Positions 15,001-21,000 of a stretch of DNA of 64,000 nt are shown one piece after another. Source of the DNA: Puniceicoccaceae bacterium (lineage in GTDB: Bacteria > Verrucomicrobiota > Verrucomicrobiia > Opitutales > Oceanipulchritudinaceae); the NCBI GenBank assembly GCA_040830765.1, contig JBFOMH010000011.1, positions 1 through 64,000 on the forward strand, written 5' to 3'. A program made the position numbers. Numbering within the stretch: the stretch's first letter is position 1; each line of letters begins with the position of its first letter.

Positions 15001-18000
15001 TGCTGGGGATTCTGCGGTTGCTTTCCCTCGAGCAGGTTCCCGCCCAGACGGTGGCCCCGAAGTTCACCGGTCGCTTCAACAAGGGAGTGGATTACGTCGG
15101 GGATGTGGACCAGTTCCGGAGTGAATTTGAGGCGGACCTGCTGGTCGTGGGTCATGCCATTGAGCATTTCGGGATGCCGGAAAGCCTTAAATTAAGTGTC
15201 CACTCCGGGAGTGACAAATTCAGCCTCTATCCTGTCATCAAGGAACTAGTGGCGAAGCACAACGCCGGTTTGCACTTGAAGACCGCCGGGACAACCTGGC
15301 TGGAGGAAGTCATTGGCCTGGCCGAATCCGGGGGCGAGGGGCTGGCCTTTATCAAGGACTTGTATGTGGAAGCGCTGCAGCACTTCGATGAGCTGACCGG
15401 TCCGTATGCGACGGTCCTGGATATCGATCCGAGCCAGTTGCCGGGCGCTGAAGAAGCCGGCCAATGGACCAGTGAAGACGTTATCGCCATGGTCGCCCAT
15501 GATCCTGGACACCCGCGTTTCAATTCCGGCCTGCGGCAGTTTTTCCATGTCGCCTTCAAGCTGGCAGCCAAGGCGGGGGACCGTTACTACAACCTGCTCG
15601 ATGCCAATGCCGTCGTCATCAACCGGCGCGTCTACGACAATCTCCACGACAAACACATCGTGAAGGTATTTGCCTGACACAGGGCGAGCAGCCTTTCCAG
15701 CCGCTCACCTAGAATTCATCGAAGGAAATCTGCTGAGGCTCGACCCCGAGTTCAGTCAGCATCCGGGTGCAGGCACGGATCATCATCGGCGGACCACAGA
15801 GGTAAAACTCGACCGCCTTGGGATTTGGATGATCCTGCAGGTAATTGTCGAGGACGACCTCATGGATAAATCCGGTGTGCCCCGTCCAGTTGTCCTCCGG
15901 GAGGGGCTCAGAAAGGGCCAGATTGAAGGAGAAATTGGCATGCTGTTCAGCCATCTGCTCAAAGTAATCCTGATAATAGAGTTCCTGCCGGGAACGGGCC
16001 CCGTACCAGTAGCTGACCTTGCGCGGGGTCTGCTCATTTTCAAAGAGATGGGCGAGGTGGGCCCGTAACGGGGCCATTCCGGCGCCACCGCCAATGTACA
16101 CCATTTCCCGCTGGGTCGGGCGGATGTGAAAGTCACCAAAGGGGCCGATGGCAGTGACCGTATCCCCGGCCTTCAGGTTGAAAGCATAACTGGAACCAAC
16201 ACCGGGCGGACAGTCCTGACCCGGAGGCGGCGTAGCAATGCGGACGTTGAAGCGAAGGGCAGTCTCCTTCTGCGGATTACTGGCGATGGAGTAGTTGTTG
16301 CGTCGGCTCTGTTCGGCGTTGCTGACAACGAGGTCGAAGACATGCTGGCGTTCCCACACGGAGGCATAGGGCTCCGGAACATCAAATTCGCGGAAGCGGA
16401 TTTGCTCATACTGGGGAATGTCGAGCTGCATGTAATCGCCGGGCTGGAATTCGATTTTCTCTTCACTGTCAGCCGGTTCCAGTACCAGTTCCTTGATGAA
16501 CGTGGAGACGTTCTTATTGCTGACGACCCTGAAGGTAAAAGTCTTTTCCTCCCGTGCACCATCGCCGCCAGCGCGGGAAACATTGAGCCAGATGCGGCCG
16601 TTGCGTTCCTCAATGGGGTAGGTGACAAGGCCCCTGCAAATGGGAGCCCGTGCGGGAGAGCCATCCGGAAGGTTGAAGCGGCCGTTGTGCTTCGGGCACT
16701 CGATAATCCTGCCCTTGACGAGGCCGTTGGCGAGATGGGTATTTCCGTGGGTACAGAATCCGTCCGTTGCATACAGCCTGCCCTCGTTGTCCCGGTAAAG
16801 CGCGTAGGTCCGTGTCCCGTGGTCGAAACGGATGACATCCTCGCTGCCAAGGTCGGCAGCGGCACAAATCTCCATCCACCCGTCCGTGTCCGGTCCTGCT
16901 TCTGAGCGGTACGTGTCATCGGCGTGCTGTCGTGTCGATTCCGGCAGCTTGCGCTTGACGTGCCATGCCGGCTCCTTGACCTGACGCAGGATGGCAGGGA
17001 TGATTTCCTTGTAGGCCGCAATAATTCCCGGATAAGGCTCCGGGCAGTCATCCTTTACCGCCTCGTGCAGCTCATGCTGCCGGTGATACGGAACCAGCGG
17101 AAACATGTGATGCTCCACATGGTAGTTCATGTTCCAGTAAAGGAAGCGGTTAACAGGATTCATGTAGACCGTCCGGCAGTTGAGCCGATGGTCGAGGACG
17201 TTTTCAGCCAGGCCGGCGTGCTGGGTCAGACCGTACATGACCATCACCCAGCTTCCGAAAATATTGGCCAGGCCAACGTACATCAGTGGCAGGATGCTTC
17301 CCGTGTAAATGGCCAGGCAAACGACGACGGCATAGATGCAAAGGTAGATGCGGGCGTTGCGGTAGATCTTTCCGAACTGTTCCTCAGGAATAAAGGTCTT
17401 TTCATCTTCCGTCATCCTGCCCATGGCATGCTGGGTTACGGTCTGGAAGTACTTTATATAGACTGGAAGATTGAAGATGCTCAGGAGCAGCGTCTTGATG
17501 TCCGGTGGCCGGGGAACTGCGATTTCCGGATCCCGCCCAACAATGATGGTATCACTGTGGTGCCGGGTATGGCTCCAGCGCCAGACAACGGATTCCCGCA
17601 TGACCATGAAGGAGGCGATTTCATAAAGCGCGTTGTTCATCCAGTCGGTCCGGAAAGCGGTTCCGTGGCTCGATTCATGCCAGCGGGAATCGGAGCTGCC
17701 CCCATAGAGGATGGCATAGATCATGTAGGGCAAAATGGCCCACCACGTGCCCCAGAGGATGTAGGTGGCGTAGGCGGAACCGAAGATGAGGCCAAACCAG
17801 ATGAGGGTGTCACGGATTGCCGGTCCGTTCGTCCGCTCCAGGAGTTTGCGCATCTTGGCCCGCGGAACGGGACACTGGTACCAGTCCGCCTCCGCCAGGC
17901 CTTTCTCAATGGCCTTGGTGGCGTTTTCACCAGTCAGGCTGTAATCGAGGTGCTTCGGAGGATTCAGGTGGATCGCACTGGCGTGTTCGAGGTCATCAAG

Positions 18001-21000
18001 CATAGCTCTATTTTAGGATCCTTTTTATGGCATTAGGCAATTCCTTTCATGAATTACCTTCATGAAGATACAGTTGCATATTTGAATTATTACTTATTTC
18101 ATCAGCCCCTGTGAACGCATTTAGCAAGATGACCTCCCGCGAACGGGTAAACCGCATGTTTGCCCGCGAGGACCATGACCGCATGCCTCGTCACGAAGGG
18201 TGCTGGCTGGAGACGCTCGACCGGTGGATGCAGGAAGGCCTACCGGCTGACAACCACGATGATGCCTTTGCTGTTGTCCAGCAGCAGCTGGGTGGCGACT
18301 TGCAGATGGTCAACTGGTACTGGCCGCATTCCTTTCCGGGCAGGATGGAGGTCCTTGAGGAGGACGAGGATACCCGGGTCACCAAGGGTCCAAGCGGGAC
18401 AATCGAGCGATTCTGGAAGAACAAGTCGGGCACGCCGGAACACCTCGGCTGGGAGTGCGATGAGCGCGAAATCTGGGAATCGACCTACAAGCCGGCGATG
18501 CTCGAACAACCCGTGCAGATCGATGTGGAGGCCGTCAGGAAGCAGGTCGAGAAGGCGGAACGGCATCATCGCTGGACCTACCTGGCCGGCGTGGGACCGT
18601 TTGAAGTCATCCGCAAGATCCTCGGGGACGAGCTCTTCATGATGAACCTGATCGACGAGCCGGACTGGATCGAGGACATGGCCCGGATATCGATGGATAA
18701 CCTCGTCCGCAATTACCAGGTGGTGCTGGATGCCGGCATCCAGGCTGACGGGCTGTGGATATTTGATGACATGGCCTTCCGGACCGCAACCTTCTGCTCC
18801 CCGGCGATGTATCGCGAGCTGCTGTGGCCGCAGCACCAGCGGTTGGCGGAGTTTGCCCATGCCAACGGGATGAAGTTCATCTACCATACGGATGGGGATG
18901 TCCGGCAGGTGCTTCCCGACTACATCGAGGCCGGCTTCGACTGCCTCCAGCCACTGGAGGCCAAGGCCAGTATGGATGTGAGGGAACTGGTGCCCCAGTA
19001 TGGCAGGGAATTGGCATTTTTCGGTAATATCGACGTCACGAAGTTAATCACCAACGACCTCGATATCATTGAGGAGGAAATTGCCAGCAAGCTGACCGTG
19101 GCCAGCGGGTCGAAGGGCTACATTTACCACTCCGACCATTCCGTCCCGCCACAGGTATCATGGGAAACCTATCAGGCGGTCATCCGGTTCCTCGACAAGT
19201 ATGGATCCTACGGTTGATTCGGCAGAGTAGGTAACGGGCATTTCCCTTTAGCGATCCCTGCGACCTCCCTGAGAATTGATTTGCCGGTTCCCGGTAAACC
19301 TTGGAAGCTGCTGCCGTGGGCAATGATAGCCAAGGCAAGGAATTCCGATCCTCGACGAACCTGCAGCTCTGTAAACTGCAGCCAGTCGATGCTCAGCATG
19401 GCTTGCGACTCTCCCGGATCGCCCATTGGAACCAGACCTTGGCTGACTGGGAATTCCTCTTGCGGGCAGGAGCTGGGTTCGGGTTCCGGACAGGGGACGG
19501 AATCTGGGTGGCGACGTTGATTGCCCTACCATTGGGGAACAATATCGGCTGGCTCAGCATGGTGCTGGTGGATCCGGAATGGCGTCGTCAAGGTCTGGCC
19601 AGTCGATTGATGCAGGAGGGCATTCGCTGGCTACAGGAGCGGGACTTGCGTCCGGTGCTGGATGCTACCCCCGAAGGTGAGACGGTCTATCGCAATCTCG
19701 GTTTTTCCGGCCAGGAAAACCTTGCCCGCTGGTTGCTGACGCCGGGTGCCGAGGAAGTCCCCCATGACATTGAAGGGGATAGCAACATCCGGCTCGCAGG
19801 GAAAGCGGATATCGAGCAACTTGCCCGCTGGGACAAGAATCTCGCCGGATTCGAGCGAAAGGCGGTTATGGAGCACCTGCTTGAAACCAAGCCCGAAATT
19901 GCCTTCCTTGCCGAGAACACCAAGGGCGATCTTTCCGGCTACATCATGGGACGTGAAGGCGAACGGGCGACCCATTTGGGACCCTTGGTGGCAGAGGACG
20001 CCGCGATGGCACGACAGCTCATCTCGACCGCTGTCCGGGTTATTGATTCACCGCTTTATGTGGATGCGTTTTCCATCAACCAGCCGGCCCTGGCATCCGG
20101 TCTGGGGGTGCACTGGTCAAAGGAGAGAACCTTCCGGCGGATGGCCTATGGGGATGCGCCATTGCCGGGCAACCCCGCCATGCATTACCTTGCCGCAGGA
20201 CCGGAACTGGGTTGACCCGGTCCTTGGCCACTGGCAAATCAGAAGGCACCTTGAGCACTACCCATCCCATAGAGTATATCGTTATAGCCCTTTATTTTGG
20301 GGTGCTCATCGGGGTGGCTTTTGTCTTCCGGCGGTTCAACCAGAACGTGGATGACTATTTCCGCAACGGTTGCCGCGGAAGCTGGTGGCTGGTCGGTTCG
20401 AGCGCTTTTGTAGCCAACTTCACCGCCTGGACCTTCACCGGTGCGGCCGGGGTTGCCTTCACGGCCGGCTGGAGCGTCATGGTCATCTTCATGATCGCGC
20501 CAACAACAGCGCTTATTACGGCGATCTTCTTTGCGGACAAGTTCCGGCAGATCCGGGCTATTACAGCACCGGAAGTTCTGCGACGTCGCTTTGGCGGGGC
20601 TACCGAGCAGTTCTACAGCTATTTCGGGATCCTCAACAACCTCCTCATCTCCTCCATTCAGCTGTACGGCCTGGCTATCTTTGGTGCGGCCATCTTCGGC
20701 TTCGATATCGAGGTGGTGATTGTCTTCATTGGCCTGGTGGTCCTGACTTACTCGCTTTTCGGGGGCAGTTGGGCCGTCATGGGGACAGACTTCATCCAGG
20801 GATTGATCCTGGTTCCGGTGACTTTGTTTGTCTGCCTGCTGTGCCTGATCGAAATCGGGGGTATCGGTCAGCTCTTTGCCATGATCGAGGAAAAGGGCCT
20901 TGCGGCCGATTTCCAGATGTTCAACAGCGACCAGTTTGCCGGGCGGGTCTCCGACTTTACCTGGGCCTGGGCCCTGGCCATGCTGATGAAAAATGTTCCC

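Follow-up and report, generated by a model that had tools for sequence, protein, structure and literature searches.

A three-domain oxygenase with MocD- and MocE-like parts, misnamed NqrF, in sugar-associated loci: a candidate demethylase of methyl-ether sugars

The demethylase role of the rhizobial MocDEF proteins is reportedly a genetic model, put forward by Bahar in 1998. Other His-box membrane di-iron enzymes are the methyl hydroxylases XylM/XylA and AlkB/rubredoxin (or its rubredoxin fusions), which draw their electrons from an NADH reductase through an iron-sulfur carrier, and we know of no full three-part fusion among them. XylMA has been called analogous to mocDEF (PMC13434037). The only sugar O-demethylase found described in a literature search was the cytochrome P450/ferredoxin/ferredoxin reductase system demethylating 6-O-methyl-D-galactose of porphyran (PMC6292453), and the literature consulted contained neither a paper on the fused enzyme considered below nor a measured activity for any member of its family, fused or unfused.

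The analysed window, a stretch of 64,000 nucleotides at the start of a contig of a Puniceicoccaceae bacterium, contains two copies of a gene whose homologues carry the name NqrF in the source databases. Copy A (P0001; 15709–18003, minus strand) is a 764-aa ORF with an ATG start, monocistronic, convergent with the gene at 14406–15677 and divergent from that at 18111–19217. An earlier note on this DNA had described it as a single polypeptide of three domains, and the domains and motifs were reproduced: the fused oxygenase is a single-chain enzyme with a di-iron, a Rieske and a reductase part. The membrane di-iron FA_desaturase domain (17023–17748, minus strand; residues 86–327, 125 bits in Pfam) lies inside a MocD-like region of residues 17–371, and its three histidine boxes recovered by motif search, H109ESSH, H145TRHH and H295VEHH, follow the HX3-4H, HX2-3HH, HX2-3HH pattern that defines the FA_desaturase/AlkB superfamily. 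It is followed by a MocE-like Rieske [2Fe-2S] ferredoxin domain (16582–16878, minus strand; residues 376–474) with the ligands C417-T-H419 and C436-P-K-H439 (CxH, CxxH), matched by the Pfam Rieske model at 58.5 bits (residues 376–463) and by the NCBIfam model MocE_fam_FeS at 116.1 bits over the whole domain, which is below the curated cut-off of 136.15. The C-terminal part is an NqrF-type FAD/NAD(P)H reductase (15712–16545, minus strand; residues 487–764) with FAD_binding_6 at 553–626 and NAD_binding_1 at 637–745 in Pfam. The eight histidines of the three boxes, the four Rieske ligands and the stretch G638-G-G-A-G-M-x-P645, which we take to be the NAD-binding motif, were invariant in 25 aligned homologues of 61–84% identity. 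Of the membrane-spanning hydrophobic hairpins expected on either side of the His boxes, the hydropathy profile gave peaks only at about 66–85 and 213–256. No p450 haem domain was matched by Pfam in the protein.

The database name would make the protein subunit F of the Na+-translocating NADH:quinone reductase, and its score with the nqrF model (TIGR01941; 356 bits against a cut-off of 295), like the naming of its homologues, speaks for it. The match, however, is confined to residues 487–764, corresponding to positions 128–403 of the 405 in the model, while positions 1–127, presumably the membrane helix and the plant-type 2Fe-2S domain of NqrF, are unmatched and replaced by the di-iron and Rieske domains. 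No Nqr subunit was matched by Pfam among the 43 window ORFs scanned, and a genome-wide search of this 97%-complete genome found no full-length NqrF. The FAD/NADH domain is indeed a close relative (PDB 2r6h, the NqrF-type FNR module, E 3.5e-100; PDB NqrF FAD domains E 1e-92 to 3.5e-100), but with foreign N-terminal domains and outside any nqr operon the identity with subunit F was rejected, as the earlier note had done, and we give it practically no credence. The label thus misassigns the oxygenase to a sodium pump.

The N-terminal region of copy A shares 51% identity over 355 aa (E 6e-135) with MocD, the reference here being the annotated mocD of R. etli CIAT 652, and its Rieske part shares 49% identity over 100 aa (E 2e-37) with MocE (MocEa). 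By these alignments, both parts are genuinely homologous to the annotated MocD and MocE, respectively. The rhizobial MocF (MocFa), in contrast, is a Pyr_redox_2-type ferredoxin-NAD+ reductase without similarity to the NqrF-type residues 487–764 (E 0.055), and the reductase of the fused oxygenase is therefore, as judged from sequence, analogous and not homologous to MocF. The earlier equation of the domain set with MocDEF consequently holds for the first two domains but not for the third. Its count of unfused homologues of residues 1–360 on 294 plasmid records, 147 from Rhizobium and 85 from Sinorhizobium, was reproduced exactly (52–54% identity over about 95% of the region). The direct link to mocDEF drawn from those plasmids did not hold as stated: their loci represent a widespread LacI-linked cluster of mocDEF type and are not demonstrably rhizopine loci. 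R. etli CIAT 652 and R. johnstonii 3841 both show the order LacI, TIM barrel, desaturase-like gene, MocE and reductase. M. huakuii 7653R shares this arrangement, its regulator bearing no annotation beyond substrate-binding-domain protein; the S. meliloti pSymB locus is without the TIM barrel. A gene for a PanB-like methylene-THF enzyme follows the reductase in all four of these unfused loci, and M. huakuii additionally has purU and folD.

The family shows graded architectures, from stand-alone proteins of about 355 aa through desaturase-Rieske fusions to the triple fusion, and therefore the Rieske part is a dedicated partner of the di-iron domain. Two-domain fusions, 456–533 aa long approximately, made up six of the nine relatives examined and were 31–62% identical to the N-terminal region of the query; they carry these di-iron and Rieske domains in unchanged order but end after the Rieske part and need a separate reductase. 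Triple fusions of 61–84% identity occur in Verrucomicrobiota, Acidobacteriota, Bacteroidota, Planctomycetota, Kiritimatiellota and Chloroflexota, bearing out the spread over many phyla stated before. The FA_desaturase match, together with a weak hit (38.5 bits, cut-off 500) to the model for the Delta(10) desaturase DesB, would also suit a membrane-lipid desaturase or hydroxylase with a built-in electron supply and merely incidental sugar neighbours. This is very improbable: the protein falls in the MocD-like branch (51–62% identity), it shares no more than 31% identity with the stand-alone desaturase-like gene of this genome, and no lipid-metabolism gene was recurrent among the annotated neighbours in related loci (the 32 largest clusters by representative plus 237 genes within three positions). 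A self-sufficient oxygenase of MocD/E type, neither NqrF nor a lipid desaturase, is proposed with high confidence.

Copy B, the second, contig-cut copy already reported, was found at 14–2071 (minus strand; residues 1–686, 84% identical to copy A) as the last gene of an operon running from 4541 to 14. The operon begins with a URO-D/MtaA-like gene (3282–4541, minus strand), followed by a GalM-like aldose 1-epimerase directly upstream of the oxygenase (2102–3187, minus strand; Pfam, galM_Leloir 231 bits, below cut-off), and an AraC-family regulator (4655–5545, plus strand; Pfam) is divergent from it. A C-terminal piece covering residues 636–764 stands at the end of another contig, C34, with only 89% DNA identity in the overlap. 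Because copy B has proline at the otherwise invariant R647 and H649, both encoded in the first ~170 bases of the window, these bases would seem to reflect errors at the contig end, or else a third copy.

Genes of methyl-transfer type lie near both copies. A URO-D/MtaA-like gene (18111–19217, plus strand) shares a 107-bp intergenic region with copy A and heads a plus-strand run of GNAT, SSS transporter and sulfatase genes; two more such genes (9812–10882, plus strand; 10899–11990, minus strand) stand beside genes for a DUF1638 protein (12054–12782, plus strand) and a RACo-type corrinoid reductive activase (12787–14367, plus strand), all identified by domain profiles. Four of the nine MtaA-like genes of the genome lie within 10 kb of an oxygenase copy. 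The window also encodes a feruloyl-esterase-like protein and, 29 kb away, a homologue of the THF-dependent O-demethylases LigM/DesA.

Neighbours were counted in 77 related loci (from 82 sources) with a called oxygenase gene. The recurrent module consists of AraC, a GalM-like mutarotase, the oxygenase and then a hitherto undescribed, divergent xylose-isomerase-like TIM barrel. The mutarotase gene immediately precedes the oxygenase, in the same orientation, in 18 of the 70 loci having an upstream gene; the TIM barrel, directly downstream in 22/73, is the most frequent partner and had been missed in the earlier partner list. AraC was present in 28/77 loci, Sugar_tr MFS transporters in 10/77 and RhaT in 7/77 (17 for both transporter clusters together). 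The claim that epimerase, AraC, transporters and corrinoid methyl-transfer genes recur beside the oxygenase was thereby upheld, with counts of the same order of magnitude as, though not identical to, those given before for 80 loci. Mutarotase and TIM-barrel partners are dispersed through every clade of the tree and across five phyla; one or both occur in 36/77 loci and neither in 41/77, the latter figure weighing against demethylation. A glutathione-independent formaldehyde dehydrogenase (TIGR02819, cut-off 637) lies near the oxygenase in L021 (position +1, 713 bits) and L048 (+2, 703 bits), and a third homologue, recognised by a BLASTP match without a model score, is six genes upstream in L041. 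All three of these 77 loci belong to Acidobacteriaceae, so that the association may represent one or two events. Also against demethylation, THF one-carbon genes (PanB-like, PurU, FolD) were found in none of the 77 fused loci, and no FdhA-type formaldehyde dehydrogenase above cut-off in this genome.

The co-transcription of a URO-D-like gene with copy B, and its position upstream on the same strand in L012 and L069, could mean that the oxygenase works in one pathway with the corrinoid proteins, for example on a methylated non-sugar such as a methoxylated aromatic, a methylamine or a methyl-sulfur compound. The LigM/DesA-like gene, of a family known for aromatic O-demethylation, and the feruloyl-esterase-like protein would fit, and the UroD superfamily includes enzymes that demethylate O-, S- and halogen-bound methyl groups (PMC10418091). 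Corrinoid-system genes (MtaA-like URO-D, RACo, MtaC, MtaB, DUF1638), however, occur within 10 kb in only 8/77 loci, behind the mutarotase and TIM barrel or the sugar transporters, and no aromatic ring-cleavage genes were seen among the Pfam-scanned ORFs of the window, which leaves such a pathway improbable. Two points from the corrinoid genes also weigh against sugar O-demethylation. L065 and L069 contain the methanol methyltransferase MtaB, so part of the corrinoid genes may serve methanol released from methyl esters and not ethers. And co-transcription of an O2-dependent enzyme with a corrinoid-type methyltransferase homologue would be odd if the two were oxic and anoxic alternatives.

The same self-sufficient oxygenase might, as a possible though less convincing option, perform another oxidation of a sugar-derived compound. 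It could hydroxylate the C6-methyl group of rhamnose or fucose as 6-deoxy sugars, form a keto-sugar or inosose by C-H hydroxylation, or oxidise a cyclitol, with the TIM barrel processing the product. AlkB and XylM relatives hydroxylate C-methyl groups, and rhamnose genes are frequent nearby (RhaT, RhaM, GH78 and GH106 rhamnosidases). In L040, L076 and L078 the oxygenase has a bona fide AP_endonuc_2 gene as neighbour, and L040 and L087 contain GFO_IDH_MocA genes. The only solved relatives of the xylose-isomerase-like partner are the dehydroshikimate dehydratase AsbF (E 3.3e-5) and a putative DNA-binding protein (E 0.044), which fit keto-sugar or cyclitol chemistry and demethylation equally. Against it, O-demethylation is the role modelled for the nearest relatives that have a functional model at all, the formaldehyde dehydrogenase and methyl-transfer neighbours would be left without a role, and a GalM-type mutarotase suits an ordinary hexose product.

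Homology and gene context are best explained by an oxidative O-demethylation that acts on imported methyl-ether sugars, which we consider somewhat better than an even chance; the formaldehyde dehydrogenase and methyl-transfer neighbours, those of this window included, count in its favour. Each copy would be a membrane monooxygenase dependent on O2 and NAD(P)H, its soluble domains necessarily facing the cytoplasm; the domains suggest a path of electrons from NAD(P)H to the FAD of the NqrF-type domain, then to the Rieske [2Fe-2S] cluster and the His-ligated di-iron centre. There, an imported methyl-ether sugar, or a related cyclitol, would be hydroxylated at its O-methyl group, and the hemiacetal would decay to the free sugar and formaldehyde. 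The sugar would pass to the GalM-type mutarotase and, in many genomes, to the TIM-barrel isomerase- or epimerase-like enzyme. Algal or plant glycans are a putative source of such methyl sugars.

Compared with mocDEF, the proposed chemistry is the same O-methyl hydroxylation, and a regulator, a TIM-barrel enzyme and sugar or cyclitol genes accompany both systems. They differ in that three separate proteins stand against one chain, a Pyr_redox_2-type against an NqrF-type reductase, LacI against AraC control, and a PanB-like gene after the reductase in 4/4 rhizobial loci against 0/77 fused ones; the substrate is an aminocyclitol there and probably an aldose here. XylM/XylA and AlkB, compared by description, likewise combine a His-box di-iron enzyme with an NADH reductase plus iron-sulfur carrier, but act on hydrophobic substrates and use a plant-type ferredoxin domain or rubredoxin as carrier. 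The P450 system shares with the fused oxygenase the location in glycan-utilisation loci and the proposed insertion of oxygen into a methyl C-H bond to give sugar and formaldehyde, but uses haem instead of di-iron in an unrelated fold, and is soluble and composed of three proteins, while the fused oxygenase is membrane-bound and a single one (PMC6292453).

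The 764-codon open reading frame of copy A (15709–18003, minus strand, ATG start) joins FA_desaturase (residues 86–327), Rieske (376–463), FAD_binding_6 (553–626) and NAD_binding_1 (637–745) domains of Pfam in a single polypeptide. The histidine boxes H109ESSH, H145TRHH and H295VEHH and the Rieske motifs C417xH and C436xxH, previously noted in this protein, were all found in copy A, and their His and Cys residues were invariant in an alignment of 25 homologues (61–84% identity). Equally invariant were N570-Y-S and G638-G-G-A-G-M-x-P645, which we take to be the flavin- and NAD-binding motifs, respectively. 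The MocE-family model of NCBIfam scored 116 bits on residues 376–474, below its cut-off of 136. From the architecture, the cofactor ligands and the homology, the protein is nearly certain to be a self-sufficient MocD/E-type membrane monooxygenase.

Public sources label its homologues as "NADH:ubiquinone reductase (Na+-transporting) subunit F". The nqrF model of NCBIfam indeed scored 356 bits against a cut-off of 295, with an aligned span restricted to model positions 128–403 on residues 487–764, and the C-terminal domain is closely related to the FAD domain of NqrF (PDB 2r6h, E 3.5e-100). Model positions 1–127, presumably the membrane helix and the plant-type ferredoxin domain of NqrF, had no match in the fused protein. 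No match to an Nqr subunit was obtained for any of the 43 window ORFs that were scanned; in a whole-genome search with the nqrF model the only matches above noise were the fused copies, again from model position 128 onward, and a true, full NqrF was not found. The partial model match and the lack of a full NqrF in the genome uphold the claim of the earlier note that the fused protein is not subunit F of the Na+-NQR. If true, this would correct a systematic misannotation, by which Na+-NQR counts in metagenomes would be inflated.

When 5.8 billion clustered proteins were searched, 8000 candidates of similar length were scored and 3787 of them matched; the best 120 were 71–84% identical and 690–809 residues long. 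In a search with one genome per species at least 599 stretches matched the patterns, 594 of them encoding a relative, which places the family in the genomes of at least 594 species, mostly from soil, bog and lake habitats. The 80 loci kept for comparison belong to Verrucomicrobiota, Acidobacteriota, Bacteroidota, Planctomycetota, Kiritimatiellota and Chloroflexota, and their cultured carriers include Oleiharenicola lentus (L078) and Winogradskyella sediminis (L067). The N-terminal region had 377 matches at E ≤ 1e-30 among 1.84 billion representatives clustered at 50% identity; six of the nine scanned matches of about 456–533 residues consisted of FA_desaturase plus Rieske and ended there, while the stand-alone forms of some 350–366 residues, including the rhizobial ones, formed one clade (SH-aLRT 100) in a tree with an unreliable root. 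Thus, three architectures exist: the di-iron part alone, the di-iron part with the Rieske part, and both with the reductase. Rooting was attempted with the stand-alone desaturase-like gene of the genome under study, 31% identical to copy A and adjoining a zinc alcohol-dehydrogenase-family gene (C26:79552–82199), and was discarded because of its 7-unit branch.

The assembly (3.99 Mb, 97% complete), of which the window is C11:1–64000, contains the second, contig-cut copy that had been reported: copy B lies at 14–2071 on the minus strand, spans residues 1–686 and is 84% identical to copy A. Contig C34 terminates in a piece covering residues 636–764 of a fused gene. Joining copy B across the two contig ends was rejected, since they overlap inexactly (166 nt at 89% identity). 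The first ~170 bases of the window differ by 11% from the C34 end and encode proline at the invariant R647 and H649, so that this segment looks like a contig-end error, although the mismatch may alternatively reflect a third copy. In the tree built from 83 fused proteins, copies A and B fell into one clade of eight (SH-aLRT 99), and copy B was 94% identical to P0002, a protein of another genome; the duplication thus predates the split from that relative, and the two copies are old paralogues. Contigs of libraries recorded (X2, X4) or guessed (X3, X5) to be RNA, from two studies, match parts of copy A with no more than one base difference; as X2, recorded as RNA, covers 29 of the 30 bins into which the first 20 kb of the window were divided, transcription is indistinguishable from DNA carry-over.

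For the analysis of gene neighbourhoods, ORFs were called in 82 sources, namely the 80 loci and the surroundings of both window copies, and the 1125 proteins were clustered by BLASTP. The fused gene itself was called in 77 sources and lost in L009, L028, L037, L043 and L052. For the 32 largest clusters a representative of each was annotated. Of the 240 unlabelled locus genes at most three positions from the fused gene, 237 were annotated, three very long ORFs being left out, and four more window genes had been annotated beforehand. One cluster of 12 members, "unk1054", was treated as an artefact because in L037, if not elsewhere, it corresponds to an ORF antisense to the fused gene and overlapping it; there it displaced the true gene, hence the loss of this source. 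The most frequent directly adjacent partner was a conserved protein of ~300 residues, encoded downstream on the same strand in 22 of the 73 loci with a downstream gene and present within 10 kb in 25 of 77. A GalM-like aldose 1-epimerase stood directly upstream on the same strand in 18 of the 70 loci with an upstream gene (21/77 within 10 kb), and one or both of these partners occurred in 36 of 77. AraC regulators were found in 28 of 77, 20 of them within three genes upstream on the opposite strand, followed by Sugar_tr MFS transporters (10/77), RhaT (7/77), MtaA-like URO-D (7/77) and RACo (4/77); any corrinoid-system gene was present in 8 of 77, namely in six loci and at both window copies. 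Further nearby genes encode glycosidases (GH78, GH106, GH3, GH2, GH28, GH38, a fucosidase and an arabinofuranosidase), SusC/D, RhaM, SDR, aldo-keto reductase, GFO_IDH_MocA and bona fide AP_endonuc_2 proteins. The epimerase and downstream partners were scattered across all clades of the fused-protein tree and five phyla, indicating that the module is old or was repeatedly kept.

The downstream partner (L038:12358–13275 and 24 other loci) is claimed by no family in Pfam or NCBIfam, its match to Pfam AP_endonuc_2 being weak and below the cut-off (E 3.9e-5), and it has no entry in the ESM Atlas. A profile of 20 members matched the dehydroshikimate dehydratase AsbF (3dx5, E 3.3e-5), and the alignment revealed invariant E-T-H-R and D-x-S-H motifs with further invariant E and H residues. 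We interpret this protein as a divergent xylose-isomerase-like TIM barrel, a gene for which adjoins neither copy A nor copy B in this genome.

Genes that handle formaldehyde or methyl groups are really enriched near the fused gene, yet in a minority of loci. Glutathione-independent formaldehyde dehydrogenase (713 and 703 bits, cut-off 637) was encoded by the next gene downstream in L021 and by the second one in L048, and a third homologue, detected by BLASTP only, six genes upstream of the oxygenase in L041; all three loci are from Acidobacteriaceae. No FdhA above the cut-off was present in the genome under study. The gene order in L065 is URO-D, sugar transporter, an unnamed opposite-strand gene, oxygenase, RACo, B12-binding corrinoid protein, MtaB and URO-D, with similar sets in L069 and L011; by gene content this is a bacterial methanol methyltransferase set within a sugar locus. 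In L065 (12311–16114), from an Opitutaceae genome, and in L069, RACo, the corrinoid protein and MtaB (540 bits) are directly downstream of the oxygenase. OdmB and VdmB are examples of the corrinoid O-, S- and halogen-demethylases that PMC10418091 places within the UroD superfamily. BLAST detected no PanB-like, PurU, FolD, LigM-like or MTHFR-like proteins in the 77 fused loci; the lack of the first three there, like that of FdhA in this genome, speaks against the demethylase reading. Taken together, the MocDEF model, the sugar module and the minority one-carbon enrichment make it somewhat probable that the fused enzyme is an O-demethylase of methyl-ether sugars; the main rival, some other oxidation of a sugar or cyclitol by the same oxygenase, appears rather unlikely.

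The window is a glycan-utilisation region with two GH78, a GH106, a GH88 with a BT3233-family domain, a GH5, a GH16, four sulfatases, an esterase, an SSS transporter and five AraC regulators. Copy B is the last gene of an operon (4541→14) of URO-D-like, GalM-like epimerase and oxygenase genes with a divergent AraC gene. Copy A is single and shares a 107-bp divergent region with a URO-D-like gene heading a GNAT, SSS transporter and sulfatase run. RACo and DUF1638 genes are placed between the two copies. Besides a true HemE the genome encodes nine MtaA-like proteins, four of them within the first 20 kb of the window and a fifth 15 kb from the C34 end. The four (3282–19217) are mutually divergent (19–26% identity) and accompanied by RACo and DUF1638, with no corrinoid protein nearby; two of them carry an H-S-C motif at what we assume to be the zinc-ligand site of MtaA. 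The only typical corrinoid protein of the genome, an MtaC-like 266-aa frame, is on C21 (152420–152752), other B12-binding matches being frames of at least 714 aa on C18. Further along, a gene of the GcvT fold (46985–49666; 583 bits with the model of the syringate O-demethylase DesA and 536 bits with that of LigM, both below the cut-offs) is followed by an MTHFR-like gene with a divergent AraC gene in a sulfatase/rhamnosidase locus (46985–50648), and looks like a homologue of THF-dependent O-demethylases. The 13-mer CATTATAGCRGAT has two perfect sites in the 3.99-Mb genome, at 4588–4600 and 49714–49726, in the AraC-divergent intergenic regions of the copy-B and LigM-like operons, respectively, which hints at their shared control; the two AraC proteins are 31% identical, in the HTH region only. 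Between the upstream regions of copies A and B only 8-mers and no common operator were found. No family reached the Rfam gathering score in the window, and no cobalamin riboswitch was detected. The window also encodes a 639-residue protein with a ubiquitin-like domain (Pfam ubiquitin, Rad60-SLD) and GH16 (61864–63783), an unusual pairing in a bacterium; a 1277-residue protein with a CbiX/ferrochelatase-like chelatase domain and FG-GAP repeats (50742–54575), a CbiX gene being located two genes from the oxygenase in L014; and a glutamate-synthase-like FMN domain fused to CDGSH iron-sulfur zinc-finger motifs (57424–58971).

The two copies would stand within a demethylation island combining O2-dependent di-iron, corrinoid-dependent (MtaA-like, RACo) and THF-dependent LigM/DesA-like systems, by which the bacterium might remove methyl groups from methylated glycans both with and without oxygen. 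Sugars that carry methyl ethers cannot enter ordinary catabolism. According to PMC6292453, methylated sugars resist gut degradation and accumulate in surface sea water. The run holding the whole stretch is labelled as a mollusc metagenome, which may be the source of this DNA, and 3-O-methyl-mannose and 3-O-methyl-galactose are described as abundant in mollusc glycans in PMC7690630, making host glycans, besides algal ones, circumstantial candidates for the methyl-sugar sources. Neither the fused enzyme nor any di-iron sugar demethylase was the subject of a paper returned by literature searches outside subscription journals; the only sugar O-demethylase found described there is a P450 specific for 6-O-methyl-galactose. 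The single P450 of the genome (C27), which may or may not be a sugar demethylase, has polyketide- and steroid-type P450s as its best solved matches. A second, P450-independent route for the oxidative removal of sugar methyl ethers in bacteria that degrade glycans in soil, lakes, the sea and animal hosts, with the demethylation island as its example here, is put forward tentatively. If true, it would explain the mineralisation of methylated glycans from algae, mosses, bacteria and molluscs and offer a one-gene, self-sufficient biocatalyst for ether cleavage. New here are two negative findings, that the reductase is not homologous to MocF and that the genome lacks a true NqrF, together with the TIM-barrel partner, the neighbouring FdhA and MtaB/MtaC genes, the two old paralogues and the LigM-like operon with the shared CATTATAGCRGAT.

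The relation to the rhizobial MocDEF system is close for two of the three parts. Residues 1–360 matched 294 plasmid records (Rhizobium 147, Sinorhizobium 85) at 52–54% identity, reproducing the counts and the ~54% identity reported before. Compared with the R. etli CIAT 652 plasmid pA gene annotated as mocD, the identity was 51% over 355 residues (E 6e-135), and with mocEa 49% over 100 residues (E 2e-37), while mocFa, a Pyr_redox_2-type reductase, had no similarity to the fused reductase (E 0.055). Hence, the statement of the earlier note that the domain set equals that of MocDEF holds for MocD and MocE and fails for the reductase, which would be a functional stand-in of another fold. As PMC10107442 states, mocC and mocDEF take part in rhizopine catabolism and the mocD promoter is rhizopine-inducible; PMC3538637 mentions LacI-type FixV homologues and the TIM-barrel "Msi119" adjoining mocDEF in many rhizobia. 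The four rhizobial loci compared here share the order regulator, TIM barrel, mocD-like gene, MocE, reductase and PanB-like hydroxymethyltransferase, except that S. meliloti pSymB lacks the TIM barrel, which R. etli, M. huakuii and R. johnstonii all have. Three of the regulators carry a LacI-family annotation; that of M. huakuii, whose locus has purU and folD in addition, is called a "substrate-binding domain-containing protein". A locus of Paraburkholderia has the first two genes together with one for a sugar-binding protein.
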